Notes: generated by a model not told the origin, from the letters alone. A stretch of 64,000 bases of DNA from a virus (IMGVR_UViG_2974695582_000001:46918-110917); one strand, 5' to 3'. Shown: positions 6,225 to 45,303, numbered from the stretch's first letter. Numbers and translations are program-made.

Positions 6225-6263
6225 AATGGCGGCCCTTCGGGGCCGCAAGCTTTAAGGAGGAAA

Positions 6264-6443
6264 ATGGAAGAAACATTTGAGGTTGACCTTTCTCAATTCC
6301 TGGCTGCTATTATTGAGTCTATGGGTGGAGAAGTCAGGATTCCTTATGACACCCTGCAAAGTGATGCGAAGGGTATTGCCATCGATTTTGAAGAAGATGG
6401 CGCAATTCTTGTTCTAAGTCTAGTTGAGGAGATTCCATCATGA
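6264..6443 (+). CDS. hypothetical small acidic protein
   Basis: 59-aa ORF with AAGGAGG SD 4-10 nt upstream. Its stop overlaps the dut start (ATGA). Confidence 0.45.
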   Translation: MEETFEVDLSQFLAAIIESMGGEVRIPYDTLQSDAKGIAIDFEEDGAILVLSLVEEIPS

Positions 6444-6877
6444 TGGTCGAGTATAAGTTGCTGAGTGAAAAGGCTCAGGCTCCCGTTTTTATGCGGGATG
6501 GGGATGCAGGTGCAGATATCTGTACGACGGAGGCATTTGTTCTAGCCCCTGGTGAGCGCAAGATGGTTCATACTGGGGTGGCTATTGCTGTCCCCGATGG
6601 GTATGCTGCTTTCGTACATCCACGCTCCAGTCTTGCAGCTATACATGGTATCTCTGTTGTAAATGCGCCTGGCACAATTGACGCCGGGTATCGTGGTGAG
6701 GTTTGTGTAATTCTCATCAATCACGGAGATGTTTCTATGGAATTCTCTGAGGGTCAGCGTATTGCCCAGCTTGTATTTCAGCGTGTTGAGCATCCAAGTT
6801 TTGTATTTGTTCGTGAATTTACTGATGACCGAACAGAGCGTGGAACTGGCGGATTTGGCTCGACGGGCACGGTCTGA
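6440..6877 (+). CDS. dut: dUTP diphosphatase (dUTPase)
   Basis: Conserved dUTPase motifs: AGADI, HPRSSLA, VVNAPGTIDAGYRGEV, RIAQLV, GGFGSTG. Confidence 0.9.
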   Translation: MMVEYKLLSEKAQAPVFMRDGDAGADICTTEAFVLAPGERKMVHTGVAIAVPDGYAAFVHPRSSLAAIHGISVVNAPGTIDAGYRGEVCVILINHGDVSMEFSEGQRIAQLVFQRVEHPSFVFVREFTDDRTERGTGGFGSTGTV

Positions 6878-6894
6878 CGTAGTACAATAGAAGT

Positions 6895-7095
6895 ATGATG
6901 AACGGCTACTTCCTCAGGGGAATCACAGAAGACAATATTCTTGTTTTCAGAAGTGATGACCCTGAGGAGCTTCTACGTATTATCAAGCGACTATGCGCCA
7001 GCCGCGATAAACAAATTAGAGCGCTAGCAGAACAACTAGAAATTGACTGGAACAGTCGAGAAAATACAAGAAAAGGTAATAATAAAACTAGATGA
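6895..7095 (+). CDS. hypothetical protein
   Basis: 66-aa ORF in operon context. Confidence 0.4.
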   Translation: MMNGYFLRGITEDNILVFRSDDPEELLRIIKRLCASRDKQIRALAEQLEIDWNSRENTRKGNNKTR

Positions 7096-8117
7096 GTTTC
7101 GAAGATTTTGTTTCCAAACTGGACCCCAAGACAGCTAAGCGTCTTCAGGTTGCTCAGGAGATTGAGACTACTCAGCTCCCATTGGCAAGTATTGGTCTAA
7201 CTCATGCTCTGAATGGAGGAATTGGCCAAGGTCGCGTTTCGACATTCTACGGCAATCAGAGTAGTGGTAAGTCCCTTGTTCTTATGCAGACGATTGGTCA
7301 GCTACAGAAGCAAGGATTTGTATGTGCCTATGGAGACGCAGAGGGCACCTATACAAAGGAATTTGGAAAGCGTCTCGGAATCAACAATGATGAGTTGATT
7401 TACGTTCGTAAGAAGTCTACTGGTGCAATGACGGATAAGATTATTCCGCTAATTGAGGCTGGTGTAGACTTCCTTGTGGTCGATAGTATCAGTGACTTGC
7501 TTCCAGAAGTATTTGTTGGAACTGATGGTAATGTCAAGGAATTTGCTGATATGAAGCAGATTGGTGCTCACGCAAAGTCTATTACAGCAATGTTGAATGC
7601 TATTCACTATGCTAACGAAAAGACGGCGGTGGCCCTTATCAGTCAGACCACAACAAAGATTGAGAACACCTACGTTCAGCAGGTTCCTCACGGAGGCCAG
7701 AAGGTTTTGTTTGGCTCTTCCCAGATTGTTAAGTTGACATCTAGTAATACGGATGCCAAGCAGATTAAGGGAATGGTCCAGCAGGGTGATAGGCTTGTTG
7801 AGAAGCCAATTGGTCGAAAGGTTGATTTGCTTGTAGAGAAGAACAAGTTGGGTCCTCAGCATCGTCGTTGTTCATACGACATGTATTACGACGGCCCGGC
7901 TGTAGGTGTTGACCTTGCTGGTGAGGTCTTTGATATGGCTGTAGACTTTGGTGTTGTAAACAAGTCTGGAGCATGGTACGATTACCAGGATAAGACAATT
8001 TACACTCAGGGTCGTCCAGCGTTCCTTGAGGAGATTAAGAAGGATGATGAGCTGTACTCTCAGTTGAAGAAGGAGGTTAACATCGCTCTAAATGGTGGTG
8101 TTATTGACGACGAGTGA
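7092..8117 (+). CDS. RecA/UvsX-like recombinase
   Basis: Walker A GNQSSGKS in a RecA-like context (GGIGQGRVSTFYGNQSSGKSLV). 341 aa. Confidence 0.75.
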   Translation: MSFEDFVSKLDPKTAKRLQVAQEIETTQLPLASIGLTHALNGGIGQGRVSTFYGNQSSGKSLVLMQTIGQLQKQGFVCAYGDAEGTYTKEFGKRLGINNDELIYVRKKSTGAMTDKIIPLIEAGVDFLVVDSISDLLPEVFVGTDGNVKEFADMKQIGAHAKSITAMLNAIHYANEKTAVALISQTTTKIENTYVQQVPHGGQKVLFGSSQIVKLTSSNTDAKQIKGMVQQGDRLVEKPIGRKVDLLVEKNKLGPQHRRCSYDMYYDGPAVGVDLAGEVFDMAVDFGVVNKSGAWYDYQDKTIYTQGRPAFLEEIKKDDELYSQLKKEVNIALNGGVIDDE

Positions 8118-8305
8118 AGTTTAGTGATTTCGTTGCTCAGGAACAAGAGGCAGAGGCTCCGAAGGGAATTCCTGTTGATGGTGGCTTTAGCTGTCAGACA
8201 TGTTATGAGCAATGCGACGAGGCGGAGTATTTCCGCATTGAAAAGATTTTGAAGTGGAAGTGTTCGGAGGGACACATTTCCTATGTTGAGGACTTTATTC
8301 TCTGA
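8114..8305 (+). CDS. hypothetical Cys-rich protein
   Basis: 63-aa ORF with C-x2-C...C motifs. Confidence 0.4.
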   Translation: MKFSDFVAQEQEAEAPKGIPVDGGFSCQTCYEQCDEAEYFRIEKILKWKCSEGHISYVEDFIL

Positions 8306-8416
8306 GATAGTGGAGAATGTCAGTTTGTTTCTCAGCGGTATGCTTTTGGGGGTGGCTTTGGGAATCATTGCCACCCTCATTGGTGTTACGGCATATATGA
8401 ATAGAGATAAAGAATA

Positions 8417-8644
8417 ATGTGGTGGTCGTGGGTTTTGACCGCAGTAGGTGTCACAGGTCTATATTTTGCTGGCAAGAACAATAAGCTCGGATGGGCTATT
8501 GGAATCTTTGCCCAGACCTTGTGGACAGCATATGCTCTGACTACAGAGCAGTATGGTTTCCTAGTATCAGCCTTTGCGTATGGCTGGGTGTATGTGAAGA
8601 ACTATCTAGCTTGGAGGAAAATTGAGCGAAGCGGAAGAGATTAA
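8417..8644 (+). CDS. hypothetical membrane protein
   Basis: 75 aa with two hydrophobic helices. Confidence 0.45.
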   Translation: MWWSWVLTAVGVTGLYFAGKNNKLGWAIGIFAQTLWTAYALTTEQYGFLVSAFAYGWVYVKNYLAWRKIERSGRD

Positions 8645-8930
8645 GCGAGATGGCGCTATCCCGGTAAAGAATTCCGGCCGGGGTATTCAAAAGGGCGATG
8701 CCATCCTTGAGCCATTTCTGGTAGACTATAAGGAATACAGCAAGTCCTTTGGTGTAACTCAGGAAATGTGGGCAAAGGTTTCTACAGATTCAATCAAGAA
8801 TGGTCGTAGGCAGCCAGCCCTTAAGTTGGTCATCGGTAAGGAAGGCGAAGTTAGAACCCGCCTTTGGGTTATTGGTGACAAGATGTTTCATGAGATGCTT
8901 GAGGCATGGAGGGAAAAGTATGACGTGTGA
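8622..8930 (+). CDS. hypothetical protein
   Basis: 102-aa ORF. Confidence 0.45.
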   Translation: MSEAEEIKRDGAIPVKNSGRGIQKGDAILEPFLVDYKEYSKSFGVTQEMWAKVSTDSIKNGRRQPALKLVIGKEGEVRTRLWVIGDKMFHEMLEAWREKYDV

Positions 8931-9135
8931 GTATGAAGATGGTTGCTGTGATACTTGCGACGGAAAGGGAACATCATATGATGAGCAAACAGGGGGCAAG
9001 TGTTGGGATTGCTATGGCACTGGCCACGTTCATGAGATTGAGGTAACCTTTAAGCAGAGTGGAGTAATTACAGCAGAGCAAATTAACCGAGCAATCGGAC
9101 GTAGTATTCAGCAGAGTCGGAGGTTCCAGGGTTGA
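8920..9135 (+). CDS. DnaJ-type zinc-finger mini-protein
   Basis: ATG after GGAGGG SD. Repeated CxxCxGxG motifs (CCDTCDGKGTSY...CWDCYGTGHV). Confidence 0.45.
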   Translation: MTCEYEDGCCDTCDGKGTSYDEQTGGKCWDCYGTGHVHEIEVTFKQSGVITAEQINRAIGRSIQQSRRFQG

Positions 9136-9461
9136 GTGACGAAAACCCCCTAGAGACTGTGTCGGTCATTACTGAATTCAATGACCTGACTGAGTTTATG
9201 CAGGATGACCAGCTAGATAGAGCACTAGAGCTAGCCATTCGATGCATTGCGCAACCAGATGTTGCAGCGGTAAAGGCTCCGAAGTTGATTGTTGAACTAC
9301 AGGCAATCTCTTTCAAGTTTGCGGTAAAGGCTGTTGAGTATGCGACCATTAAGAAGGACCGGGCTGGTACTGATAACAACCATCGAAAGAACGTTTATTA
9401 TTCAACCAAGGAAGCGCTAGACCGATTGGTTGATGCGCTGAAGTACGCGGCTAGAGCTTAA
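9132..9461 (+). CDS. hypothetical protein
   Basis: 109-aa ORF. Confidence 0.45.
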   Translation: MSDENPLETVSVITEFNDLTEFMQDDQLDRALELAIRCIAQPDVAAVKAPKLIVELQAISFKFAVKAVEYATIKKDRAGTDNNHRKNVYYSTKEALDRLVDALKYAARA

Positions 9462-9524
9462 ACTAGTCAACCAGGATTATGCGTGTTATAATGGTTGTAC
9501 AATAAATAACATTAAGGAAACAAA

Positions 9525-10307
9525 TTGAAGCGAGAGATTGTACAGGGTCTCAAGTTTCGTAAGCAGCCTAAGGGATTTGACGCCAATGAGTTGGCCGATA
9601 TCCTTGAGGCTGCTTATCTGAAGCAGCGACGCCCTGATAAGCATACACAAAAGAAGACCTTTTCCCCGAGTACAATTGGTTATGGGCATGGAACATGTCC
9701 TCGATATTGGTTCTTGGCATTTACTGGCGGGATGTTCATTGATTCCGTTGATGCTCTAGGGATTGCCAATATGTCCAATGGTACTCAGGCTCACGAACGT
9801 ATTGAGAAGTTGTTCGATGATTCAGGTATCCGCCTTGGTAATGAAATTGAAGTCACGATGTCTGACCCGCCTATTCGTGGGTTTGCTGATGTTGAAATCA
9901 ATTGGAAGGGCGAAGAGATTATTGGTGAAATCAAGACAACAAGGCAGGAAGCGTTCCTTGTTCGTCAGGCTACAATGAAGCCTACACCGAATCACCTGTT
10001 TCAGATTCTCATTTACATGAAGGCCCGTGAGCGTAGAATGGGATTCCTTTTGTATGAGAATAAAAATTCTCAGGAATTCCTTATTCTCCCAATTGAGATG
10101 AATGAAGCCAATTCAAAGATTATTGATAATGCACTGAATTGGATGCGAGAAACTTATAAGGCATACACAGAGGGAACGGTTCCTAATCGGCCGTTGCAGA
10201 AGCGCAGCAAGATTTGTAAGGCGTGCCCCTTCTATGAGTGGTGCTGGAGTGACGATTCTCCTGAGGGAACTATTGATATTCCTGTAATGGAGGTTCCAAA
10301 GATTTGA
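9525..10307 (+). CDS. PD-(D/E)xK nuclease, Cas4/RecB-like exonuclease with C-terminal Cys cluster
   Basis: TTG start after AAGGAAA. Motifs GFADVEI / EIKTT / QILIYMKA. C-terminal CKACPFYEWC cluster (Fe-S type). Confidence 0.6.
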   Translation: MKREIVQGLKFRKQPKGFDANELADILEAAYLKQRRPDKHTQKKTFSPSTIGYGHGTCPRYWFLAFTGGMFIDSVDALGIANMSNGTQAHERIEKLFDDSGIRLGNEIEVTMSDPPIRGFADVEINWKGEEIIGEIKTTRQEAFLVRQATMKPTPNHLFQILIYMKARERRMGFLLYENKNSQEFLILPIEMNEANSKIIDNALNWMRETYKAYTEGTVPNRPLQKRSKICKACPFYEWCWSDDSPEGTIDIPVMEVPKI

Positions 10308-20897: not shown

Positions 20898-20984
20898 GGA
20901 AGGTCAATCCGATTGGCGACGGAACTTGTCTTGAAAACAAGCGAGGTGTGAAAGCCCTTAGGAGTTCGACTCTCCTACCTTCCG
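20898..20984 (+). tRNA. tRNA-Ser (anticodon TGA), type II
   Basis: Acceptor ggaaggt/accttcc (perfect). Anticodon stem cttgt/acaag with loop cttgaaa. Long variable arm. T-arm aggag-ttcgact-ctcct. Confidence 0.6.
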
Positions 20985-22498: not shown

Positions 22499-24115
22499 AT
22501 GTCTAATGCACTTGGTAAGTACGCCGGTAGCCAGAAGGCTGCAAAGGTTGCGACTCCTCAGACAAAGCGGACTCCGGGCCGTACGGATGAGGTAAAGAAC
22601 AACGCGGGCGGGTTTGTGTTTAAGGTTGACGACAAGTCTCGACTTGAGCGTTTCCTTATCCTTGGTACTGATAAGGGTACCTACTACGTTGGTGAGCAGA
22701 AGTTGACGGCTCAGAACGTTTCTTTCCTGAAGAACCTGGTTCAGAAGGATGAGCGTCTGGTTGTGGACACGCTTGTTGACGTTTCTGTAAATGGTCGTGC
22801 GCTTAAGAATTCTCCTGCGCTGTTCGCTCTGGCCACGGTTATGACGGAGGGCAAGGATAAGGCTTACGCTCGTGAGGCCGTTCAGAAGGTTGCTCGTACT
22901 TCTACCCACCTTTTCGAGTACGCACAGTACATCGATGACCTGGGTGGTTGGGGTCGTGCAAAGCGTCGTTCTGTCGCTGAGTGGTACGAGAACAAGTCTC
23001 TGGATACGCTTGCGTATCAGGCTGTTAAGTACCGTCAGAGGAATGGTTGGACGCACCGTGACCTGTTCCGTCTGTCTCACCCTCAGGGTGTGGACCAGGG
23101 TGTTGGTAACTTCATCCTTGGTAAGGACGCAGAGTCTGAGGTGGAAATTCTTAAGGGCTTCGCTGAGATGCAGTCTGCGACTTCGGTCAAGGACGTTATC
23201 AAGACGCTGGAGACTTTTAAGAACCTTCCGTGGGAGACCATCCCTACTCAGTTCCTCAAGGACGTGAAGGTGTGGAAGACTCTCTTCTACAATGGTCAGC
23301 TTCGTGGCCAGGCTCTCATTCGCAACATCACTCGACTCGCTCGAATTGGTGCGTTTGATGACATGGTTTTCGCAACTGACTACGCGAATGCAATTGCTAA
23401 CCAGGAAATGATTCAGAAGACTCGTCTTCACCCAATCAACTTCCTGAATGCGGTTGTTGTTCATGAGTACGGTCAGATTGACCGTAACGGCTACAGCATG
23501 TGGAGTGCCGGACGTAAGAAGGATTGGAAGTCTAATGGAAAGATTGTGGATGCTCTCAATGAGGGATTCCACATGGCGTTCAAGGCTGTCGAGCCTTCTG
23601 GCAAGAGGACTCTTGTTGCGACTGACGTTTCTGGCTCAATGAGTCAGAGCGCTATCGGACTCGACCTTTCTTGTGCTCAGGTTTCTGCGGCTGTTGCTAT
23701 GACGGTTGCTCGCACCGAGCCTTACAGTGACATTGTTGGCTTCTCTAGCAGCATTGTTGACTTGGGTATTACCGCAAAGAGTTCTTTTGCCGACGCAATG
23801 CGTAAGGTGAGTAACAGGAACTTCGGTGGTACGGATGCGGCTGCTGCAATTAAGTACGCTGACCAGAAGGGAATTCAGGTTGACACCTTCGTCGTTATCA
23901 CTGATAACGAGACGTGGGGCGGAAGCCAGAAGCCTTTCCAGGCACTTAAGCAGTACCGTCAGAAGACCGGAATCGATGCGCGTCTAGCGGTTCTTGGTGT
24001 TGCGTCTACGGACTTCAGCATCGCTGACCCAACTGACCGTGGTATGATGGACTTCGTTGGTTTCGATGCCAATGCGCCAAGGGCTCTTGCAGACTTCAGC
24101 GCTGGTCGTATCTGA
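22499..24115 (+). CDS. rsr: Ro60/TROVE-domain ribonucleoprotein (Rsr ortholog) with C-terminal vWA/MIDAS
   Basis: Direct similarity to the Ro60 TROVE core: RLERFLILGTDKGTYYVGEQKL versus human [22 protein letters not shown], plus PALFALA. vWA MIDAS motif VATDVSGSMS. About 538 aa from ATG 22499. Confidence 0.9.
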   Translation: MSNALGKYAGSQKAAKVATPQTKRTPGRTDEVKNNAGGFVFKVDDKSRLERFLILGTDKGTYYVGEQKLTAQNVSFLKNLVQKDERLVVDTLVDVSVNGRALKNSPALFALATVMTEGKDKAYAREAVQKVARTSTHLFEYAQYIDDLGGWGRAKRRSVAEWYENKSLDTLAYQAVKYRQRNGWTHRDLFRLSHPQGVDQGVGNFILGKDAESEVEILKGFAEMQSATSVKDVIKTLETFKNLPWETIPTQFLKDVKVWKTLFYNGQLRGQALIRNITRLARIGAFDDMVFATDYANAIANQEMIQKTRLHPINFLNAVVVHEYGQIDRNGYSMWSAGRKKDWKSNGKIVDALNEGFHMAFKAVEPSGKRTLVATDVSGSMSQSAIGLDLSCAQVSAAVAMTVARTEPYSDIVGFSSSIVDLGITAKSSFADAMRKVSNRNFGGTDAAAAIKYADQKGIQVDTFVVITDNETWGGSQKPFQALKQYRQKTGIDARLAVLGVASTDFSIADPTDRGMMDFVGFDANAPRALADFSAGRI

Positions 24116-30415: not shown

Positions 30416-30720
30416 CTTCAGTTCTGGTAAAAATCCAGTCTGAGTTTATACAGAGTTTGGAAGGTAAGCCGGTTCGATTCCGGCAGACTGATGGGTCAGG
30501 GCGCGGTTCGAGTCCGCTATATAAATATGGGTGCAAATAGGGTAGCTCCCGCCGAGTCAGGTTCGAATCCTGGCACTCTGTATAAAGCTTACAAGACACG
30601 GGGGCTTGGCCCGTCCTCCAATCATGAGTCTTGGGTCTCAGTCCAATCGAGATTTAGAGTTAACGGGCTTGCCAGGGGTAGCTTGGTTTCGACTTTGCTG
30701 GATGACATATGAACGCAACC
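30416..30720 (+). other. cluster of degenerate tRNA fragments / T-arm-like hairpins (no intact cloverleaf)
   Basis: Four GGTTCGA(A/T/G)TCC T-arm hairpins, at 30470, 30497, 30560 and about 30690. One has a perfect 7-bp acceptor-like pairing (cagtctg/cagactg) but only about 25 nt between acceptor and T-arm. Confidence 0.4.
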
Positions 30721-30883
30721 CTTCTTGGTCAAAGAAGTAAAACGGGCCAAAACAATAAATGCAAACTCTAAGAATGCATCTGCATACGCCCTTGCGGCGT
30801 AAGAGCCGGGTTTGTCGTTGACCTAGGAACAGAACAACGACTAGACAAAATGTGTAGATAATGTGTAAGACCCTTCAGTGTGA

Positions 30884-30912
30884 TTGACATGGTTGTGTAA
30901 CGGTTATATGCT
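30884..30912 (+). promoter_or_regulatory. promoter TTGACA-N17-TATGCT
   Basis: Drives the downstream small ORF. The 5'UTR contains a T-arm-like hairpin gcgggttcgactcccgc. Confidence 0.45.
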
Positions 30913-30968
30913 AGATAGTAAAGGACGCGGGTTCGACTCCCGCCTACTCCACACAGAAAGATAAGGTA

Positions 30969-35770: not shown

Positions 35771-36232
35771 ATGACAGAGAAAAGATGTAGCTTTCCAGAT
35801 TGCGAATACCCCTTCCTAGCGAAGGGGTATTGCAACAATCACTATCAGCAATCAAGGTCTGGTAGAGAGCTTGTTCCAGTAAGGCCAAGGTCAAAAAATG
35901 GTTCTGGAACGATTAACACAGATGGCTATAGAATCGTCTATAAGCCTGGCCATCCCAATTGCCAATCAAATGGTAGGATTGCCGAACATCGTTGGGTCAT
36001 GTCGGAAAGTCTTGGAAGACCTCTTGAGGAGTATGAAGAGGTTCATCACAAGAATGGTGACAGACTTGACAATCGCCTTGAGAATCTGGAACTATGGGTT
36101 CGTAGGCAGCCGCCTGGACAACGGGCGGAAGACTTGCTAGAGTGGGCATACGAAATCATTAGACGATATGGAGATGAAAATGACTCACGTTTCAGCAATC
36201 TTTTCAGTGGACGACCTGAACAAGGCAATTGA
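35771..36232 (+). CDS. HNH homing endonuclease (HNH_3-like)
   Basis: GYRIVYKPGHP...GRIAEHRWVM...EVHHKNGDRLDNRLENLEL. Confidence 0.65.
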   Translation: MTEKRCSFPDCEYPFLAKGYCNNHYQQSRSGRELVPVRPRSKNGSGTINTDGYRIVYKPGHPNCQSNGRIAEHRWVMSESLGRPLEEYEEVHHKNGDRLDNRLENLELWVRRQPPGQRAEDLLEWAYEIIRRYGDENDSRFSNLFSGRPEQGN

Positions 36233-37247
36233 GGACGGTTGGGTCAGGGTCCAGACGAATGAGGATAATACCCTCTCTATTTACAATTATACAGAAGCGA
36301 GCCAGTATAAGCGTTACTGGAATGATGTGACGCTGAATTGTCGGGGTTTGATTCTCGACAGCTACAATCACATTGTGGCACGTCCTTGGAAGAAGTTCTT
36401 CAATTTCGGTGAGCGTCCGCTTCTGTTTTCTACGGATGACCCAGTTGAGGTAACGGATAAGAAGGATGGCTCATTGGGTATTCTTTACCAGCACCCAATG
36501 ACTGGTGATTACCGAATTGCAACTCGTGGCTCTTTTCTTTCTGACCAGGCAATTCACGCAACAAACGTCTGGGATAACAAGTACAGCCACATTGCAGACC
36601 CGTGGCACGGAGTAACCTTCTTGTTTGAGATTGTGTACCCTGAGAACCGCATTGTTTTGGATTATGGTGAGACTGATGACCTTATCCTTCTTGGTGCAGT
36701 TCAGAATCAGTACGGTTGGTACTACGGTCCCAACGAGGCTGCGGGTATGCTCAACTGGACTGGCCCGGTCACAGAGGTCTTTGAGTACCGCACCACGAAC
36801 GACTGCTTCAAGGTGCATCGCTCAAATGCTGAGGGTCTGGTAATTCGGTGCGGTAGTGAGATGGTCAAGTTGAAGCAGGAGGACTACGTAGCTTTGCACA
36901 AGCTAGTTACGGGTCTGAACGAGCGGGCTGTGTGGGAGCGCTTGATGGCAGGTGAGAGTCGTGATACTATCTGTTCATCGCTTCCGGATGAGTTCCACGG
37001 ATTTGTTGACAAGGTGGCCGATGAGCTGGAGACTCAGTTCAAGGAGATTTACCACTCTTCTCACGTGAGTTACTGCGAGATTCTTAACAAGATGCCTGGA
37101 AAGTCGGCACTTCCTAAGAATGAGTGGCGTAAGTTGTTTGCATCATATGCGGTAAAGATGCCCAACTACGACCTTATATTCAATTACTTGGACAACCGTC
37201 CGGTTGCTGAGTCAATTTGGAAGATGATTCGTCCGAAGGGTGAGTAA
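36180..37247 (+). CDS. ATP-dependent RNA ligase, Rnl1 (T4 RnlA)-like
   Basis: Nucleotidyltransferase motif I VTDKKDGSLGILY (KxDGSL as in T4 Rnl1). 355 aa. A Pnk-like kinase lies downstream. Confidence 0.6.
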   Translation: MTHVSAIFSVDDLNKAIEDGWVRVQTNEDNTLSIYNYTEASQYKRYWNDVTLNCRGLILDSYNHIVARPWKKFFNFGERPLLFSTDDPVEVTDKKDGSLGILYQHPMTGDYRIATRGSFLSDQAIHATNVWDNKYSHIADPWHGVTFLFEIVYPENRIVLDYGETDDLILLGAVQNQYGWYYGPNEAAGMLNWTGPVTEVFEYRTTNDCFKVHRSNAEGLVIRCGSEMVKLKQEDYVALHKLVTGLNERAVWERLMAGESRDTICSSLPDEFHGFVDKVADELETQFKEIYHSSHVSYCEILNKMPGKSALPKNEWRKLFASYAVKMPNYDLIFNYLDNRPVAESIWKMIRPKGE

Positions 37248-37406: not shown

Positions 37407-37679
37407 ATGATGGATTACGAAAAGATTATTGATGGATATAACGACCTTCGTGAAACATGTCTTGTAATTGCTAAGCTTAACGATGAATTGATGGGTCCAG
37501 ATAGATGGCTGAAGTTTGCCATTCAGGATTCTGACATCACGCTGATGTTTACAGAGCGAGGCATCGTGTGCTATGGTAGTGCTTACACGACACAGACTAT
37601 GGACAACGAACACTTCAGTTTCATGATTCCGTTTGAATACATAGAGGAGTTTGAGGCAAATGCTAGAGCTGGTGATTAA
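37407..37679 (+). CDS. hypothetical protein
   Basis: 90-aa ORF after GGAGG. Confidence 0.45.
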   Translation: MMDYEKIIDGYNDLRETCLVIAKLNDELMGPDRWLKFAIQDSDITLMFTERGIVCYGSAYTTQTMDNEHFSFMIPFEYIEEFEANARAGD

Positions 37680-38085
37680 CCGGGGGATTCCGGGAAGCGG
37701 TAAGTCAACGTATGCTCGCAAGTGGGTATTCGATGGAACTCCGCTCAATCGTCGTGCTAGAGTTAACCGTGATGACATCCGTAAGCAGCTTTACGGAGTT
37801 GACTTCGGGGTTCCAGTTGAGGAGACTGCTGTAACTGCTGTCGAGTACGCTATGATTCGCTCTTTGCTTGAGCGCGGAGTGTCTGTTATTGTTGACGACT
37901 GCAACATCAGTCAGCGATACATTACTGCATTTACAAAGATTGCAAAGGAGTTTGATGCTGAGGTGAGGGTAAACCTTATCGATGTTGAGCTTGATGTTGC
38001 AATCCAGCGTAATCAGGGCAGGGAGCGTTTCGTTCCTGTCCATGTAATTGAGGACATGTATAGGCGACTTCAGGAGCAACTGTGA
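37651..38085 (+). CDS. polynucleotide kinase-like P-loop kinase (Pnk/zeta-toxin fold)
   Basis: Walker A GIPGSGKST. Walker B-like IVDDCN. 144 aa. Confidence 0.55.
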   Translation: MRQMLELVINRGIPGSGKSTYARKWVFDGTPLNRRARVNRDDIRKQLYGVDFGVPVEETAVTAVEYAMIRSLLERGVSVIVDDCNISQRYITAFTKIAKEFDAEVRVNLIDVELDVAIQRNQGRERFVPVHVIEDMYRRLQEQL

Positions 38086-40716: not shown

Positions 40717-40884
40717 ATGGCAGATTGGTACAGGACACACAATGTGAGTCCGGAAGCAGTGAGTGAAGAAGAGTATCGTGATTGGCTTGCTGTGAATGTG
40801 AGTGTTGAAGAGGCAGACCGTTTCTGGTATGGTGTTGAAGACGCAGAGTTTCTAGGGGATGATGACTATGGCCGGACTTCCTAA
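40717..40884 (+). CDS. hypothetical small acidic protein
   Basis: 55 aa after GGAGG. Confidence 0.35.
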   Translation: MADWYRTHNVSPEAVSEEEYRDWLAVNVSVEEADRFWYGVEDAEFLGDDDYGRTS

Positions 40885-41095
40885 GAAACTGTACTATGTT
40901 CTTATCAAGCCTGGTGGTAAGCCTCTTGGGTATGGTAAGAAGGGTGGCGGTAAGTACACAAGTCGTTCCGCTGCTGAATCTCAGGCAGAAGATTTGAAGA
41001 AGCAAGGTGTCAATGTGACTTTGTGGGAATCTTCAGAGATTGATTGGACTGAAGTTCCAATTTCGGTTCCAGAGAACCAGGAACCTCTATGGTAA
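40859..41095 (+). CDS. hypothetical protein
   Basis: 78-aa ORF. Confidence 0.4.
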   Translation: MMTMAGLPKKLYYVLIKPGGKPLGYGKKGGGKYTSRSAAESQAEDLKKQGVNVTLWESSEIDWTEVPISVPENQEPLW

Positions 41096-41772
41096 AGGTA
41101 CTATTCGTAACTGGTGCCGGGATTTCTGCTAATGCGGGAATCCCAACATACCGTGACGGAGGTTCATCATGGAAGGATGCCGACCTTGAGAAAAAGTCTC
41201 ACGCGTCCCGTTATGGCAACCACCTAGATGAGCTGTGGGATAAGCATTGGGGGCCTGTAGCAAAGGCTATGGGGCAGGCTGAGCCGACACAGACTCATCG
41301 TGCGATTGCTGAGTTTCAGAAGGACAACCCCAGCATCGTAGCAACTCAGAACATCGATGACTTGCACGAACGGGCGGGGTCTGATAACGTAGCTCATGTG
41401 CACGGAAGTATGGTCATTAAGTGCATCCGATGTAAGCGAAGCCACCTTGAAACAAAGTGGTTTGGCAAGGGTGCACCTGTATGTCCTCACTGTGGAAAGT
41501 CTAAGACTCGTCCAGATGTGGTACTCTTTGGTGAGAAGTTGGACCTGAAGATGTTTGCTGCACTTGAGTCTTTCGCTAAGCATGATGCAGATGTTATTGT
41601 TGCTGTTGGAACCTCACTGAATGTGTTTCCTGCGGCGGGTTTGGTAATGGATAATATCGCAAAGTCTGTCATCATCAATAAGGAGAAGACACCTTTCGAC
41701 AAGTTCGCGTACAAGGTCTACAATGATGATTGTGATTCCGTAATTGATGAAGTCCTAGGAGGACTAAACTAA
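41089..41772 (+). CDS. Sir2-family NAD-dependent protein deacylase / ADP-ribosyltransferase (sirtuin)
   Basis: Sir2 family motifs: GAGISANAGIPTYR, QNIDDLHERAG, catalytic HG (AHVHGS). Zn ribbon CIRC...CPHC. Also RPDVVLFGE. Confidence 0.85.
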   Translation: MVKVLFVTGAGISANAGIPTYRDGGSSWKDADLEKKSHASRYGNHLDELWDKHWGPVAKAMGQAEPTQTHRAIAEFQKDNPSIVATQNIDDLHERAGSDNVAHVHGSMVIKCIRCKRSHLETKWFGKGAPVCPHCGKSKTRPDVVLFGEKLDLKMFAALESFAKHDADVIVAVGTSLNVFPAAGLVMDNIAKSVIINKEKTPFDKFAYKVYNDDCDSVIDEVLGGLN

Positions 41773-42249
41773 ATGGTAACGTATGTCAAGGGTGATGCGA
41801 CCAATCCTCAGGGTGATGGTCCAAAGATTATCGCTCACGTCTGCAATGATGAGGGCGGATGGGGAGCAGGATTTGTTCTGGCAGTTGATAAGTTGTCTCC
41901 GCGCCCGAAGAATTTTTACAAGAATGAGTACGCGTTCTATATGAACGCTGGTTATGCATTCATGCCTCTTGGCGTGATTGACGTTGTTCCTGTTGGTGGG
42001 GATGTTTATGTGTGCAATATGGTTGCCCAACATCGCACAATTCGTTCAGTTGAAAAGCCTATCTGTTACAAGTCTCTTGAGATTTGCCTGACTAAGTTGG
42101 CTGAGTATGCTGTTGCTGAAAACGCAACAGTTCATATGCCTCGCATTGGCTGCGGTCTTGCGGGTGGCAACTGGGATGTGGTAGAGTCAATTATCAACCG
42201 CACACTGACTCTTCGAGATGTGGATGTCACTGTGTATGACCTTCCGTAA
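41773..42249 (+). CDS. macrodomain protein (ADP-ribose binding/hydrolase)
   Basis: Macro-fold motifs: VKGDATNPQGDGPKIIAHVCNDEGGWGAGF and IGCGLAGGNW. Lies immediately after the sirtuin gene. Confidence 0.65.
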   Translation: MVTYVKGDATNPQGDGPKIIAHVCNDEGGWGAGFVLAVDKLSPRPKNFYKNEYAFYMNAGYAFMPLGVIDVVPVGGDVYVCNMVAQHRTIRSVEKPICYKSLEICLTKLAEYAVAENATVHMPRIGCGLAGGNWDVVESIINRTLTLRDVDVTVYDLP

Positions 42250-42306
42250 GGAGGGTGCGGGGAAACCCGCAAGCTTCATTGGTTCGAAAACAAAGGAGAA
42301 TAACCA

Positions 42307-44232
42307 ATGCGACCTAATGCAAATGTTGCTGAACGCCAGGGTGACCTTGGTGGACAGAAGATTGCAATGACGTTCGACCAGAATAGCCTTGCGCATCTTA
42401 TGAGGGTTATGACTGACCTGTATTCTGACCCTGAGCTTGCAGTTATTCGCGAGTATAGCACAAATGCGTGGGATTCCCACAAGGCCGCTGGTGTTACCCG
42501 CCCAATTGAGGTTACGCTTCCTAATGGTCTCTCGCCTTTCTTCAAGGTGAAGGACTTCGGTCTTGGTATGGATATCTCTGATATTGAGAATATCTATTCT
42601 CAGTATGGTGCTTCTACTAAGCGTGACACTGATGACCAGGTTGGTATGCTTGGGCTTGGTTGTAAGTCTGCTCTTTCTTACACTCAGCAGTTCAATGTTG
42701 TTGCTGTAAAGAATGGCCGGAAGTACAATGTGGCTGTAAGTCGTACCGAAGATGGTTCTGGAATGATGGAAATTGTTCTGGACACTGAAACTGATGAGCC
42801 AAATGGTGTTGAAATTATTGTTCCGGTAAAGCGTGGACATAACTTTCAGCGGAAGGCCATTGAGTTCTATCAGTTCTGGGAAAAGGGCAGTGTCCTGGTT
42901 GATGGAACTGAGCCGAATTACATTTCTGGCCGGGAGGTCAAGGATGGTATTCTGATGGTTCCTGACCTGTCCAAGGATTATCTTGTTATGGGTAATGTTG
43001 GATACCCTCTAGCTGATAATTATCAGCTTGGTAATCGTAACTACTACTCAAAGTATGGTGTTGTGGCTCGTGTGGACATTGGAGATGTGAATTTCACTCC
43101 TTCCCGTGAGTCTCTGCACTACACTAAGATGACTGAGGCAACGATTAACCGGATTCGTGAGGAATTCAAGGCTGGTTTGGACGGAATCGTTGAGCGTGAT
43201 GTTGCTGCATGTAAGTCTCAGGAAGAGGCTCTGAATACTTATCTTGAGTGGTACAATCTTCTTGGTGGTGGCTATAATCGCTATCCATTCCCTGACTGTG
43301 AGTACCAGGGTAAGAAGGTTCCTCTGAAGATTAACCATCCGTTCCTGTCTTACAAGGTGAATCACACGCGGTATGCTGTTGATTCTCATGCATGGATTGA
43401 CATTAAGACTGCCCGCGATACTCCGATTATTTATGGATTCGCTGGAGAAAAGATTAGTGGTCATCAGCGTGAGAAGATGCGTACATGGCGAACGATGAAT
43501 GGCTTTGAGTCCAACAACATTCTTATTTGCGACGAGCTTCCTGAGATTCTTGAGGAAGACTGGATTCCTGAGTCTAAGATTTATTCTTGGGAGGATGTTA
43601 AGAAGGCTAAGGCTCCGGGACAGAAGACTGGTCGTCCGAAGGCTATGTTTGATGTGTGGCTTCCGGGGGCTGTCAGAATCAAGTCGGTAACGGCTGACGA
43701 TTTTCCTGACGACGCTAGGATTGCTCTGGTGGCTCCGAGGGACGTTCCTAATAACAAGGTGGTTCTAAAGTTTATTGAAGAGCATGACGATGTCATGATT
43801 GTTCGCCTTCAGTCTTATCGTTGGGAGAAGTTCAGGAAGTCGTACCCGCAGGCATTGAATCTTGGTGACATGCTTGCTAAGATGTACAACGAGTCGGTAG
43901 AAGCACTGACCGATGATGACAAGTTCAACTTGGGCCTTGACTATCGGGTGCGAAGTCTGCTACAGTCACTTAATGAGGCAGAAATCAATGACCCTGAGCT
44001 TGTGAAGGCTATCATTGCTGCAAAGGAGGTCACTCCTAGTGCTACGCTCAAGCGATATGAGCAGATGAATGACCTGTTTTCCGGGCATTACTTTGTCCGA
44101 AGGTCTAGTCTGAACATCAATAGGATTAACCCGCTTGAGAAGTACACTCTGCTTCAGAATTCGTACTACAATTACGATGTGAAGCACGCTACTGTTTACA
44201 TTAATGCCGCTTATGAGGCTTTCGTAAAGTGA
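42307..44232 (+). CDS. GHKL-family ATPase domain protein (possibly rIIA-like)
   Basis: GHKL motifs: N-box EYSTNAWDS, G1 DFGLGMD, G2 GMLGLGCKSALSY. 641 aa. Followed by a 336-aa partner ORF. Confidence 0.6.
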   Translation: MRPNANVAERQGDLGGQKIAMTFDQNSLAHLMRVMTDLYSDPELAVIREYSTNAWDSHKAAGVTRPIEVTLPNGLSPFFKVKDFGLGMDISDIENIYSQYGASTKRDTDDQVGMLGLGCKSALSYTQQFNVVAVKNGRKYNVAVSRTEDGSGMMEIVLDTETDEPNGVEIIVPVKRGHNFQRKAIEFYQFWEKGSVLVDGTEPNYISGREVKDGILMVPDLSKDYLVMGNVGYPLADNYQLGNRNYYSKYGVVARVDIGDVNFTPSRESLHYTKMTEATINRIREEFKAGLDGIVERDVAACKSQEEALNTYLEWYNLLGGGYNRYPFPDCEYQGKKVPLKINHPFLSYKVNHTRYAVDSHAWIDIKTARDTPIIYGFAGEKISGHQREKMRTWRTMNGFESNNILICDELPEILEEDWIPESKIYSWEDVKKAKAPGQKTGRPKAMFDVWLPGAVRIKSVTADDFPDDARIALVAPRDVPNNKVVLKFIEEHDDVMIVRLQSYRWEKFRKSYPQALNLGDMLAKMYNESVEALTDDDKFNLGLDYRVRSLLQSLNEAEINDPELVKAIIAAKEVTPSATLKRYEQMNDLFSGHYFVRRSSLNINRINPLEKYTLLQNSYYNYDVKHATVYINAAYEAFVK

Positions 44233-44292: not shown

Positions 44293-45303
44293 ATGAAGTA
44301 TAATCTCGTTCAGGTTGAGGATGGCGGAGAAGCGAACCTTACCGTCGTTCACGATGGAGAGATGTACGTCGCTACGGACAGTCACCCCAATTTTCAGCGA
44401 ATTGTTGCTGGTCTGGCTGTAGGAGATGAAAGTGTAGTCGAACTCTTTGATGTTCAGAAGACTGCACAGAGGCGATTCGACCGGCTTTCCGAGCGGGTTA
44501 CTGTCGCAAATGGCAAGGTGTACCTTGATGGTGAAGAGGCTGACAATGCTCTTACTCAGCAGGTTATTCACTTTGTAAATCAGGGTGTTGAGGATTTCAA
44601 GCCTCTTGTTGCCTTCTTTGAGAAGGTTGAGACTAACCCAAACAGTCACAGTCGAGAGCAGCTTTACACTTGGCTTCGTGACCGCAACATTACCCTTACT
44701 GAGGATGGTAACTTCATTGCTTACAAGGGTGTTCGTGTTGAGAACGATGAGTATTTCAGCATTTCTACCGGAAAGGCTATTTCGAATGGCGTAGAGTACA
44801 ATGGCGCAATTCCTAACCCTCTCGGTGCTATCGTTGAGATGCCTCGTTCTGAGGTTCAGCACAATCCTGCGGTTGGCTGTCACACTGGTCTGCACGCTGG
44901 TACGTGGGGTTACGCGTCCGGGTTTGCTCGTGGTGCTGTTCTGACCGTTGAGATTAATCCTCGCGACGTGGTTTCTGTTCCTACGGACTGTGATGCTGCT
45001 AAGTTGAGGGTCTGTCGATACATTGTCAAGGACGTTACTGAGACTGAGCTTGACGCAGCAGTCTACAGCACGTACCCTGACCTTGATGGTTACGACGACG
45101 AAGAGTATGACGACTACGGCTATGAGGACGACGACGAGCCGGATGTTGACACGGAAGAGACTCCTCAGGTACAGTCTGAGGAGAAGGAAGTAACCGAGTC
45201 AACTGGTGTCGTGACTGCTGATGTGTCTAGTGCAATTACCTGGCGTCCTGTAGAGTCCAACTGGGCTCCGGAGGACCCTGACGCACCTTGGAACCGAGTC
45301 TAA
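44293..45303 (+). CDS. hypothetical protein (putative rIIB-like partner), acidic C-terminus
   Basis: 336 aa. Acidic C-terminal region (DLDGYDDEEYDDYGYEDDDEPDVD), lying about 60 residues before the end. Adjacent to the GHKL gene. Confidence 0.3.
   Translation: MKYNLVQVEDGGEANLTVVHDGEMYVATDSHPNFQRIVAGLAVGDESVVELFDVQKTAQRRFDRLSERVTVANGKVYLDGEEADNALTQQVIHFVNQGVEDFKPLVAFFEKVETNPNSHSREQLYTWLRDRNITLTEDGNFIAYKGVRVENDEYFSISTGKAISNGVEYNGAIPNPLGAIVEMPRSEVQHNPAVGCHTGLHAGTWGYASGFARGAVLTVEINPRDVVSVPTDCDAAKLRVCRYIVKDVTETELDAAVYSTYPDLDGYDDEEYDDYGYEDDDEPDVDTEETPQVQSEEKEVTESTGVVTADVSSAITWRPVESNWAPEDPDAPWNRV

Follow-up and report, generated by a model that had tools for sequence, protein, structure and literature searches.

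Adjacent sirtuin and macrodomain genes on one strand, both engaged in NAD+/ADP-ribose chemistry, have been described for the SirTM/Zn-Macro system of Staphylococcus and Streptococcus (Rack et al. 2015; Ariza et al. 2024), whose extended operon additionally comprises GcvH-L and LplA2. The class M sirtuins of this system are defined by the change of the catalytic HG to QG, by a GVGx[NT]TP motif and by linkage to a special macrodomain subclass (PMC4518038). In SpySirTM, the catalytic-motif glutamine is Gln137, and its replacement by histidine abolished ADP-ribosylation (PMC4518038). The partner macrodomain is of the MacroD type and carries a Cx4HxC zinc loop as well as an N-terminal three-helix bundle (PMC11490716). 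A phage-borne sirtuin-macrodomain pair was reported for Moab (Iyer, Burroughs, Anantharaman and Aravind 2022, Viruses 14:1977, Fig. 5d) and interpreted, on the model of SirTM, as an ADP-ribosylation system resembling type II toxin-antitoxin pairs (PMC9503650, section 3.7.1).

A different macrodomain subclass is represented by SCO6735 of S. coelicolor and BT1257 of B. thetaiotaomicron. Its criteria are Gln85 at the position of the catalytic Lys of TARG1/DarG, Val/Ile25, Asn27 and Gly126/Gly128, while K34 and K89 of SCO6735 are residues helping in DNA binding (PMC9411070). The hydrolase SCO6735 has T-ADPr in DNA, U-ADPr in RNA and Glu/Asp-ADPr in proteins as substrates (PMC9411070; PMC13036486), and TARG1 cleaves O-acetyl-ADPr, too (PMC9411070). 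Stand-alone phage macrodomains of about 160 aa are also known, namely AdfM (PhiKZ gp104, anti-DarT2) and Adpp (Vibrio phage Gary, an ADPR-1''P phosphatase), which act on ADP-ribose adducts or derivatives and thereby defeat host immunity (PMC13309987; bioRxiv 10.64898/2026.01.28.702374).

The gene pair of Streptomyces phage Comrade and its surroundings

The window, i.e. the whole stretch of 64,000 nucleotides that was analysed, matches Streptomyces phage Comrade (NC_048728) at 100% identity, so the placement of the pair in a phage by an earlier, sequence-only reading was correct. The Sir2-family protein (Comrade gene 161; positions 41089-41772, + strand, 227 aa; Pfam SIR2) and the macrodomain protein (Comrade gene 162; 41773-42249, + strand, 158 aa; SCO6735/BT1257 subclass according to phmmer against the PDB) are encoded exactly where that reading had put them, as judged from the ORF list. 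The TAA of the sirtuin gene is followed without gap by the ATG of the macrodomain gene, i.e. the two genes abut on the same strand. At the other end, a small ORF with no assigned function (Comrade gene 160; 40859-41095, + strand, 78 aa; ORF list and annotation) terminates with a TAA that overlaps the sirtuin start codon. Both junctions carry a short repeat: its left copy, the 8 bp ATGGTAA(A/C) at 41089-41096 (+ strand), combines sirtuin start codon and upstream-ORF stop, and the right copy, ATGGTAAC at 41773-41780 (+ strand), forms the macrodomain start immediately 3' of the sirtuin TAA.

Downstream of the pair, an rIIA-like protein (42307-44232, + strand; PHROG 612, 4.6e-102) and an rIIB-like protein (44293-45303, + strand; PHROG 609, 1e-62) are encoded. 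About 4 kb upstream lies the gene of a T4 Rnl1-type RNA ligase (36207-37247, + strand; annotation and Pfam RNA_lig_T4_1, 4e-16), followed by a polynucleotide kinase (37660-38085; annotation, AAA_33), and tRNA genes are located between the latter and the pair. Comrade also carries a second RNA ligase, Ro60, three metallophosphoesterases, a tmRNA and about 35 tRNAs. A promoter and terminator scan around the pair performed no better than on shuffled sequence and found no transcription-unit boundary; a search of the window with Rfam returned tRNAs and one tmRNA only, with no match inside the pair. Gene 227 ('hydrolase', 157 aa) was considered as a second macrodomain and rejected, being an NlpC/P60 peptidase.

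Family placement of sirtuin and macrodomain

All Sir2 motifs listed in the earlier reading are present in the translation of gene 161: GAGIS (residues 9-13), GIPTYR (17-22, including Y21-R22), QNIDDLH (87-93, including Q87-N88-I89-D90), the catalytic H105-G106 within AHVHGS (H105 codon at 41401-41403) and the zinc cysteines C112/C115/C132/C135 (CxxC...CxxC). Further key residues are F147-G148-E149, G174-T175-S176 (AVGTSLNVFP) and N197. Loss of the HG histidine or of a zinc-binding cysteine had been named as a possible objection to that reading, but His105 and the four cysteines are intact. Among 40 clade members, His105-Gly106 is invariant, and hardly any or no variation is seen in Q87-N88-I89, the four zinc cysteines, the FGE loop and GTS. 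The protein matches Pfam SIR2 over model positions 1-180 of 180 (E 1.9e-36; 126 bits at a cut-off of 24) and PHROG 2162 with 5e-34. NCBIfam models of CobB-like deacylases give 1e-28 to 5e-51, each under its naming cut-off; as the best CobB score is 173 bits at a cut-off of 243, the sirtuin is a CobB relative and not a nameable orthologue. Best matches in the PDB are the biochemically established deacylases Sir2-Af1 (1e-30), CobB (7e-26) and SIRT5 (2e-24), and cellular deacylases score higher against the protein (about 110 bits) than proteobacterial phage sirtuins do (56-83 bits). In a Foldseek search with the AF2 model (pLDDT 87.7), the top 50 structures are all deacylase sirtuins (TMq 0.71-0.85). 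For CobB, Sir2-Af1/Af2, Sir2Tm and SIRT5, TMq is 0.74-0.85 and the identity over the alignments 26-33%, and structures of Sir2Tm, CobB and SIRT5 with bound peptide share the fold. By its sequence, the protein is thus a sirtuin of the canonical, His-containing type with a predicted, deacylase-like activity. The class III YxxR motif is missing, which speaks against a SIRT5/CobB-type desuccinylase; the WYAWR segment of Sir2-Af1 has its counterpart in H53-W54-G55-P56. As the YxxR region is replaced by a clade-specific invariant block (residues 28-56), the acyl or acceptor specificity could be non-protein.

The sequence-only reading had described the pair as a SirTM-like ADP-ribosylation module and had proposed to classify the sirtuin as class M or other. 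This classification yields canonical deacylase relatives and no class M enzyme: HG stands in place of QG and GTS (AVGTSLN) in place of GVGx[NT]TP, Arg192 is missing, and GcvH-L and LplA2 are not present in Comrade. Likewise, the macrodomain is no Zn-macro of the MacroD type, since it is an ALC1-like, SCO6735-type protein of 158 aa that contains neither the Cx4HxC zinc loop nor an N-terminal extension with the three-helix bundle. The third class M feature, a macrodomain gene linked in the same operon, is found, but in one phage lineage only. Adjacency of sirtuin and macrodomain genes by itself does not make a SirTM system; the published toxin-antitoxin prediction rests on that analogy. What stands of the earlier description is a Sir2 gene followed by a macrodomain gene with a common NAD+/ADP-ribose theme; a module of the SirTM type is not supported, and each gene also occurs alone in close relatives. 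A link to defence-type Sir2 proteins of Thoeris or DSR had been raised as well. PADLOC, however, gives the sirtuin only a partial match to PDC-S65 (0.00088) where ThsA, DSR or SIR2-HerA were looked for, and no defence Sir2 appears among the Foldseek top 50, which are canonical deacylases only. With zinc ribbon and FGE loop present, a defence-type Sir2 NADase was therefore rejected.

That a macrodomain directly follows the sirtuin, as originally read, is borne out by the abutting ORFs and by matches to BT1257 and SCO6735, to which the protein is about 50% identical over its full length. Pfam Macro is matched weakly (E 0.003, below cut-off), and PHROG 335, labelled 'phosphatase', with 1e-29. Searching the PDB with phmmer gave BT1257 (4e-40), S. 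coelicolor SCO6735 (6e-37), ALC1 (1e-14), TARG1 (1.5e-6) and, for the N-terminus only, Poa1p (4e-6). The profile search retained this order, with BT1257 at 3e-64, SCO6735 at 2e-61, ALC1 at 1e-23, TARG1 at 2e-12 and DarG at 3e-3; yeast Poa1p (5e-9) was matched over residues 2-58 only and far more weakly than SCO6735. The residues H22, V23, N25, Q86 and G126-C-G128 correspond to H24, V25, N27, Q85, G126 and G128 of SCO6735, and in a residue table of 120 homologues (77 of the phage clade and 43 others) these hallmarks are invariant, with V or I at position 25. Together with a long mobile loop and the GCGLAGG phosphate loop, also shared with SCO6735 and BT1257, they assign the macrodomain, at the level of sequence, to the SCO6735/BT1257 subclass of ALC1-like macrodomains. 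It differs from SCO6735 in being phage-encoded and in the replacement of K34 by A32 and of K89 by I90, the latter flanked by R88 and R91, and its hydrolase activity is a prediction. Within the phage clade, the K34 site is Ala or Ser in 73 of 77 macrodomains and the K89 site Val or Ile in 69 of 77. This loss might speak against DNA as substrate, but the argument is weakened and not decisive because AdfM, a proven DNA-ADPr hydrolase, also has GAG at the K34 site.

Other assignments of the macrodomain were less convincing. A DarG antitoxin was rejected: Gln replaces the catalytic Lys80, the protein is a single domain of 158 aa, the NCBIfam DarG model scores 21.6 bits (cut-off 250) over the C-terminal 55 residues only, and PADLOC gives DarG at 1.4e-5. 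A protein of the Poa1p/Adpp type does not fit either, given the partial Poa1p match and the missing NARP1 operon genes; a search of the whole Comrade genome for NAD+ salvage genes (NAMPT, NMNAT-Nudix) found none, hence no NARP1 or NARP2. The known phage macrodomains belong to other sub-branches, AdfM being DarG2-like with a catalytic Lys and Adpp Poa1p-like, and pairwise BLAST of AdfM against the Comrade macrodomain gave no detectable similarity (E 1.6).

Distribution of the two genes among phages

Among Streptomyces phage records, 38 carry the macrodomain and 14 the sirtuin. Synteny in the relatives shows that, throughout this phage subfamily, the macrodomain gene immediately precedes rIIA/rIIB whether a sirtuin gene is present or not. 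In roughly two thirds of the records of related Streptomyces phages it stands in that place with no sirtuin, as seen, for instance, in Gilson, Francob, Forrest, Sham, TunaTartare and BillNye. In Loccivirinae-type phages, it is found directly or closely downstream of the sirtuin in all 12 of 12 loci, as would be expected for a type II toxin, whose gene should not be found without that of its antitoxin. Same-clade sirtuins (54-68% identity), on the other hand, are encoded at 13 loci without a macrodomain within 6 kb, and in L025 the sirtuin lies directly upstream of rIIA/rIIB. None of the macrodomain-less sirtuin contigs is named among the best 80 of 133 macrodomain-bearing viral contigs, which is at most suggestive of contigs that have no macrodomain elsewhere. 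Hence, sirtuin and macrodomain are separable genes and not an obligate two-gene module, and their pairing is confined to one phage lineage. Annotations of a true ADP-ribosyltransferase in the sirtuin slot of Faust and Francob proved to be quirks, the Faust protein being a sirtuin orthologue (87%) and that of Francob a macrodomain orthologue (70%).

The pair of phage Moab, a sister phage of the same genus, is orthologous to that of Comrade (sirtuin 89%, macrodomain 92% identical) and has the same position upstream of rIIA. Its classification as a toxin-antitoxin-like system is opposed by the same observations, namely a sirtuin outside class M, a macrodomain that is no Zn-macro and the occurrence of each gene alone in relatives.

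Further afield, 72 more distant viral contigs encode this macrodomain type with no sirtuin nearby. On 13 of them, NMNAT-Nudix precedes the SCO6735-type macrodomain by no more than about 2.3 kb, and 12 of these 13 contain NAMPT (the NARP2 salvage genes) upstream as well, mostly abutting the macrodomain. The only cellular setting found with an SCO6735-type macrodomain near a CobB-like sirtuin is an island of Chryseobacterium (15 of 80 cellular loci, one genus), which unites the two with a MacroD-type macrodomain, KptA, ADP-ribosylglycohydrolase and DUF4291. It differs from Comrade in that the macrodomain is upstream of the sirtuin at varying spacing, the sirtuin has the class III YxxR, and many more ADPr enzymes are present. 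Taken together, these neighbourhoods point to small-molecule NAD/ADPr handling. Among the same-clade sirtuins without macrodomain, one (L121) abuts an RNA ligase (PF09414), others are near cREC and RNA ligase (L014, L015, L120) or near Ro60/TROVE (L019, L022-L024), a context which hints at an RNA-related role instead of protein deacylation.

Gene 160 is kept in all relatives (56-71% identity), whether the sirtuin is next to it or not. At its downstream junction, the string CT(A/G)TGGTAA occurs in every phage examined; in phages without sirtuin, the repeat ATGGTAA(A/C) joins gene 160 directly to the macrodomain, and an ATGGTAA start/stop overlap is present at both sirtuin ends. The sirtuin is an optional, ORF-sized cassette with clean boundaries between gene 160 and the macrodomain. 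It is 79-89% identical where the macrodomain is 55-66% and rIIA 43-45% identical. Recent transfer as cause of this high identity across genera was rejected: dS (0.9-1.35) is near saturation and only slightly below that of the neighbours, and purifying selection (dN/dS about 0.08-0.10) therefore explains the identity better. The sirtuin is under strong purifying selection and presumably functional. The locus as a whole is mosaic, as seen in Blueeyedbeauty, where the macrodomain is 92% but rIIA only 47% identical, and in Forrest, where an HNH insertion left a duplicated 3' fragment of the macrodomain.

Possible functions of the pair

The explanation favoured here, which we give about an even chance, is that sirtuin and macrodomain are accessory genes of a large lytic Streptomyces phage which are separable from each other, were juxtaposed in one lineage and do not form a writer-eraser system of the SirTM type: a deacylase sirtuin and a resident hydrolase macrodomain that clears its by-product. 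The resident gene would be the macrodomain, a predicted SCO6735-type ADP-ribosyl hydrolase with intact catalytic core that is kept upstream of rIIA/rIIB across the subfamily. Most likely, it removes base- or ester-linked ADP-ribose or trims a soluble ADP-ribose derivative, and candidate substrates are thymidine- or uridine-ADPr on nucleic acids (by comparison with SCO6735) and O-acyl-ADPr or ADPR-1''-phosphate (by comparison with TARG1 and Poa1p/Adpp). Such a role would serve the phage with the macrodomain alone, probably in counter-defence or NAD-metabolite housekeeping, and a function as cleaner of ADP-ribose derivatives or as counter-defence enzyme is plausible. The sirtuin most likely uses NAD+ for lysine deacylation of host or phage proteins, which would yield nicotinamide and O-acyl-ADP-ribose. 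In phages that have both, the macrodomain, translated directly after the sirtuin, could hydrolyse this O-acyl-ADP-ribose to ADP-ribose. Both the substrates and this product-clearance coupling we infer, while the analysis itself shows what the two genes are, where they belong by family, that their catalytic residues are intact, that they are separable and that selection acts. Against the favoured view, it may be noted that the constant co-occurrence in the Loccivirinae-type phages and the translational abutment would also be expected of a dependent pair.

Such dependence is assumed if the sirtuin ADP-ribosylates a protein of the host or of a rival phage and the macrodomain reverses or restrains this modification, as proposed in the earlier reading and in the Moab prediction; we regard this as unlikely. 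Some His-containing sirtuins do possess ADP-ribosyltransferase activity. The genes are adjacent and translationally coupled, the macrodomain is always downstream of the sirtuin in this phage lineage, SCO6735-type macrodomains remove Glu/Asp-linked protein ADPr, and the mechanism was explicitly predicted for the closely similar Moab proteins (PMC9503650). Yet the class M features and the Zn-macro partner are lacking, the very exchange of Gln137 for His deprived SpySirTM of ADP-ribosylation, and the nearest relatives of the sirtuin are deacylases. In addition, the 13 sirtuin loci without nearby macrodomain argue against a toxin needing an antidote, although those genomes may carry a macrodomain elsewhere, and most relatives lacking the sirtuin have retained the macrodomain.

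Alternatively, the macrodomain might be specialised in counter-defence, either against host DNA ADP-ribosylation of the DarT kind or against a RES defence producing ADPR-1''P, with the sirtuin unrelated and placed next to it by a recombination hot spot. SCO6735 protects cells against DarT, DarTG occurs in some Streptomyces (PMC9411070), and AdfM (PMC13309987) and Adpp (bioRxiv 10.64898/2026.01.28.702374) are proven counter-defence enzymes of phages. Moreover, with 47% G+C, the phage DNA contains about 34 TNTC sites per kb, compared to about 14 expected at 72% G+C, and thus many DarT targets; the mosaic nature of the locus (Blueeyedbeauty, Forrest) and the position next to rIIA/rIIB fit as well. 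For the macrodomain, however, this proposal overlaps with the favoured explanation and differs only by denying the coupling, and chance alone does not explain a precise, coupling-preserving insertion of the sirtuin before the macrodomain in several genera. The DNA-positioning K34/K89 of SCO6735 are also absent in the phage clade, and AdfM has no detectable pairwise similarity to the macrodomain. We consider the proposal rather improbable.

Of similarly low probability is a joint function in RNA repair, in which the sirtuin would remove 2'-phosphates at RNA ends in an NAD+-dependent manner like KptA/Tpt1 and the macrodomain would process the ADP-ribose phosphate as Poa1p does, beside the RNA ligases, kinase, Ro60, tmRNA and tRNAs of the phage. 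This idea, already published for proteobacterial phage sirtuins (PMC9503650), agrees with same-clade sirtuins beside RNA ligase, cREC or Ro60/TROVE genes. It also agrees with the Rnl1 and kinase genes 4 kb upstream in Comrade, its second RNA ligase, Ro60 and metallophosphoesterases, with the N-terminal profile match to the ADPR-1''P phosphatase Poa1p and the label of PHROG 335, and with the combination of SCO6735-type macrodomain, sirtuin and KptA in Chryseobacterium. To our knowledge, however, action on an RNA 2'-phosphate has been shown for no sirtuin, and repair by T4-type Rnl1 and kinase leaves no 2'-phosphate behind. Loose proximity of sirtuin and RNA genes is partly expected because all genes for RNA metabolism lie in a single region of these phage genomes, and the loci are phylogenetically related, representing about four independent architectures. 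The macrodomain resembles SCO6735 far more than Poa1p, and the sirtuin clade keeps its FGE peptide-binding loop without variation. A more speculative variant, to which still less weight is given, is that Comrade-type sirtuins with the invariant pocket block (28-56, HWGP for YxxR) act on RNA, and not on protein lysines, in an NAD+-dependent manner, for instance in tRNA repair, where they might take off a 2'-phosphate or a group in acyl or aminoacyl linkage, the SCO6735-type macrodomain finishing the ADP-ribose-phosphate or O-acyl-ADP-ribose by-product; if true, this would constitute a sirtuin-based RNA repair pathway in phages.

The novelty of the pair is modest since it was described and predicted for Moab in 2022. 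No biochemically characterised phage sirtuin was found in the literature searched, and more than 600 phage records contain a sirtuin. Relatives with sirtuin and macrodomain, macrodomain only or sirtuin only offer a natural, isogenic-like comparison, which could reveal the benefit of a canonical sirtuin to a phage. The same comparisons could also show whether SCO6735-type macrodomains of actinophages counter DarT-like DNA ADP-ribosylation or NAD+-derived metabolites.

The sirtuin-macrodomain locus of phage Comrade

The window belongs to Streptomyces phage Comrade (NC_048728; Stanwilliamsviridae, Loccivirinae, Gilsonvirus), a lytic phage of 129 kb with S. griseus as host, positions 40800-42400 being 100% identical to NC_048728 87717-89317. 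The sequence-only reading had recognised adjacent sirtuin and macrodomain genes at 41089-42249, and indeed exactly two ORFs, both on the plus strand, occupy this interval: gene 161 (sirtuin, 227 aa, 41089-41772) and gene 162 (macrodomain, 158 aa, 41773-42249), the TAA of the former abutting the ATG of the latter with zero gap. Upstream, a small ORF (40859-41095) ends just inside gene 161, with stop and start codons overlapping in the string ATGGTAA; rIIA-like (42307-44232) and rIIB-like (44293-45303) genes follow downstream. All genes in the region lie on the plus strand, and a scan for consensus promoters and terminators around the pair yielded none above shuffled background. The 5′ side is formed by tRNA genes, a polynucleotide kinase and a T4 Rnl1-type RNA ligase.

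Both genes are additions to families already known. The same pair was described in the sister phage Moab and predicted to form a sirtuin-Macro toxin-antitoxin-like system (Iyer et al. 2022; PMC9503650), and no experimental work on any phage sirtuin was found in the literature searched. The 'ADP-ribosyltransferase' annotated at this locus in phages Faust and Francob is the sirtuin orthologue in the former and the macrodomain orthologue in the latter.

Family placement and active sites

Gene 161 covers the full Pfam SIR2 model (E 1.9e-36) and also matches PHROG 2162 and the NCBIfam CobB-like deacylase models at E 1e-28 to 5e-51, with every score under the naming cut-off of the latter. Its nearest solved relatives, Sir2-Af1 (1e-30), Sir2-Af2, E. 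coli CobB (7e-26), SIRT5 and Sir2Tm, are proven deacylases. When a confident AlphaFold2 model (40 clade sequences; pLDDT 87.7, pTM 0.86) was compared with the PDB by Foldseek, the 50 best matches were all canonical sirtuins (TMq 0.71-0.85), with neither SirTM nor defence-type Sir2 among them. PADLOC gave no meaningful match to gene 161 either, and the proposed link to defence-type Sir2 proteins thus finds no backing.

The canonical motifs claimed for the protein are all in place, and its functional residues are invariant or nearly so across the clade: the GAGIS motif, Tyr21-Arg22 of the cofactor loop, Gln87-Asn88-Ile89-Asp90, catalytic His105-Gly106, zinc cysteines 112, 115, 132 and 135, the Phe-Gly-Glu peptide-binding loop (147-149), Gly-Thr-Ser (174-176) and Asn197. 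The YxxR motif of class III sirtuins is absent, HWGP standing where Sir2-Af1 has YAWR. The region bearing this acyl-specificity motif is replaced by an invariant block specific to the phage clade (residues 28-56, window 41170-41256; W28...E34-K36-S37...Y42-G43-H45-L46-E48-L49-W50-H53-W54-G55-P56), which suggests a specific substrate pocket; hence, acyl or acceptor specificity is not readable from sequence. Gene 161 is under strong purifying selection, with dN/dS of about 0.08-0.10 at a synonymous divergence near saturation (dS 0.9-1.35). Between phage genera, sirtuins share 79-89% identity, compared with 55-66% for the macrodomain and 43-45% for rIIA.

For gene 162, Pfam Macro is marginal (E 0.003), while the full-length protein is about 50% identical to BT1257 of B. 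thetaiotaomicron (4e-40) and SCO6735 of S. coelicolor (6e-37). A profile built from 43 homologues ranked the solved structures in the order BT1257 (3e-64), SCO6735 (2e-61), ALC1 macro (1e-23), TARG1/OARD1 (2e-12), yeast Poa1p (5e-9, N-terminal part only) and DarG (3e-3). Because of this ranking, the protein is assigned, within the ALC1-like macrodomains, to the SCO6735 subclass. Mutagenesis has defined the features that mark this subclass (PMC9411070) as Gln85 (replacing the catalytic lysine of TARG1/DarG), Val/Ile25, Asn27 and Gly126/Gly128 in SCO6735 numbering; they are complete in gene 162 and invariant over 120 homologues, position 25 being Val or Ile.

The sequence-only reading had further called the pair a SirTM-like ADP-ribosylation module. 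The definition of class M sirtuins comprises QG in place of HG, Arg192, a GVGx[NT]TP motif and linkage to a particular macrodomain subclass, and changing Gln to His abolished the activity of SpySirTM (PMC4518038). Their partner is of MacroD type; it contains a Cx4HxC zinc loop and carries a three-helix bundle at its N-terminus (PMC11490716). In contrast, the Comrade sirtuin carries HG and GTS, its relatives and residues being of canonical type, and its neighbour, 158 aa long, consists of an ALC1-like domain alone and has no zinc loop. Of the class M features, gene adjacency is the single one shared, and the pair is not a SirTM module.

Separability of the two genes

Among GenBank Streptomyces phage records, 38 carry the macrodomain and 14 the sirtuin. 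In Gilson, Francob, Forrest, Sham, TunaTartare, BillNye and Blueeyedbeauty, the macrodomain occupies the same slot upstream of rIIA without a sirtuin. The ATGGTAA overlap is found on both sides of the sirtuin in Comrade, Moab, Faust and Annadreamy, and the same overlap joins upstream gene and macrodomain in sirtuin-less phages; hence, the sirtuin is a cleanly delimited, ORF-sized cassette. Conversely, same-clade sirtuins (54-68% identity) have no macrodomain within 6 kb in 13 metagenomic or viral loci, and in locus L025 such a sirtuin directly precedes rIIA/rIIB, the macrodomain being absent. No sirtuin lies within 6 kb of an SCO6735-type macrodomain in any of 72 more distant viral contigs. 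Taken together, these observations confine the pairing to Loccivirinae-type phages, where the macrodomain follows the sirtuin in 12/12 loci examined. Adjacency of the two genes is not obligate. We consider the published prediction of a writer-eraser or toxin-antitoxin system unlikely.

Several local rearrangements were also observed. In the more distant phage of L025 (1193-2412), a deoxycytidylate-deaminase-like ORF precedes the sirtuin, and a 70-aa Cys-rich (zinc-ribbon-like) ORF takes the macrodomain's position. In Forrest (L006 3039-3595), macrodomain and rIIA are separated by an inserted HNH endonuclease gene. Behind it lies a second copy of the macrodomain 3′ end (residues 127-158), sharing 94% identity with the Comrade allele versus 72% for Forrest's own macrodomain, a pattern that resembles the footprint of endonuclease-driven gene conversion. 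Blueeyedbeauty (L037) is mosaic relative to window 41773-44232, and the contrast between its macrodomain (92% identical) and adjacent rIIA (47%) indicates a recombination breakpoint between the two genes.

Neighbourhoods and possible roles

Macro-less sirtuins of the Comrade clade have RNA-metabolism genes as neighbours: an abutting RNA ligase (L121 6001-7355), cREC plus RNA ligase (L014 883-5687; L015 980-5705; L120), or Ro60/TROVE 1-2 kb downstream (L019, L022-L024, about 6000-9600). A 3′-5′ exoribonuclease is additionally seen in L020 and L022. Comrade itself encodes two RNA ligases, a kinase, Ro60, a tmRNA and roughly 35 tRNAs. In the window, about 28 tRNA hits are densely spaced over 19372-51676, one of which (20898-20983) scores as tRNA-Sec and is annotated as tRNA-Ser; the tmRNA lies at 30675-30954, a permuted model also matching 30560-30802, and the Ro60/TROVE-vWA gene at about 22499-24115, with no Y-RNA-like family reported by Rfam over the window. 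A role of both genes in RNA repair is considered improbable. The macrodomain's neighbourhoods tie it to enzymes making or consuming soluble NAD+/ADP-ribose derivatives and not to a dedicated protein-modifying partner.

In 13/72 distant viral contigs an SCO6735-type macrodomain follows NMNAT-Nudix at a distance of no more than about 2.3 kb, and in 12 of these 13 NAMPT is also upstream, mostly abutting the macrodomain; PTH2, HD and PD-(D/E)XK genes come next. The conserved block comprises NMNAT-Nudix, NAMPT, macrodomain, a 130-aa protein, PTH2 peptidyl-tRNA hydrolase and a PD-(D/E)XK nuclease, in many cases together with an HD_4 domain protein (L050, L054, L060, L061, L091 832-7250, L093, L094, L101, L106, L107, L115). 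Neither NAMPT nor NMNAT-Nudix was found in Comrade, and a limited look at NARP-related literature gave no description of a macrodomain attached to this NARP2 NAD+ salvage pathway, as opposed to NARP1. Among 80 bacterial genomes that encode an SCO6735-type macrodomain, a CobB-like sirtuin lies within 4 kb of it in 15, all Chryseobacterium, and in none of the actinobacterial ones. These islands (L144 2860-7354; L126 2621-5851) combine both macrodomain types (SCO6735 and MacroD), two DUF4291 genes, a class III sirtuin and ADP-ribosylglycohydrolase, with KptA/Tpt1 in L126.

SCO6735 removes ADP-ribose from ssDNA thymidine (the DarT product), ssRNA uridine and protein Glu/Asp, and is inactive on guanine-linked and 2′-OH-linked ADPr (PMC9411070, PMC13036486). 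Its relative TARG1 also deacylates O-acetyl-ADP-ribose (PMC9411070), and the more distant Poa1p, like the phage-encoded Adpp, acts as an ADPR-1''-phosphate phosphatase (bioRxiv 10.64898/2026.01.28.702374). In the phage clade, the DNA-positioning lysines K34 and K89 of SCO6735 are replaced by Ala/Ser (73/77) and Val/Ile (69/77); this is not taken to exclude nucleic-acid substrates, because AdfM of PhiKZ, a proven DNA-ADPr hydrolase (PMC13309987), likewise has GAG at the first site. That the adjacency is purely coincidental and the macrodomain an anti-DarT or anti-RES enzyme is doubtful, even though some Streptomyces carry DarTG (PMC9411070) and the phage DNA, at 47% G+C, offers about 34 TNTC sites/kb versus about 14 expected at a host-like 72% G+C.

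The likeliest reading, to which we give about an even chance, is a resident, independent macrodomain joined by an optional sirtuin. The macrodomain would be useful by itself as an ADP-ribosyl hydrolase, serving either counter-defence or the housekeeping of NAD metabolites. The sirtuin would act as a canonical NAD+-dependent deacylase whose by-product, O-acyl-ADP-ribose, may be cleared by the macrodomain translated right behind it. The analysis establishes what the genes are, that their active sites are intact, where they belong by family, the selection and the separability; substrates and coupling are inferred. New here are the departure from the SirTM definition, the separability of the genes in both directions, the sirtuin as a precise, optional and yet strongly constrained cassette, and the placement of the macrodomain in a subclass whose phage members have lost both DNA-positioning lysines. 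The main value of the locus is that it affords a tractable natural system to learn what canonical sirtuins do for phages.
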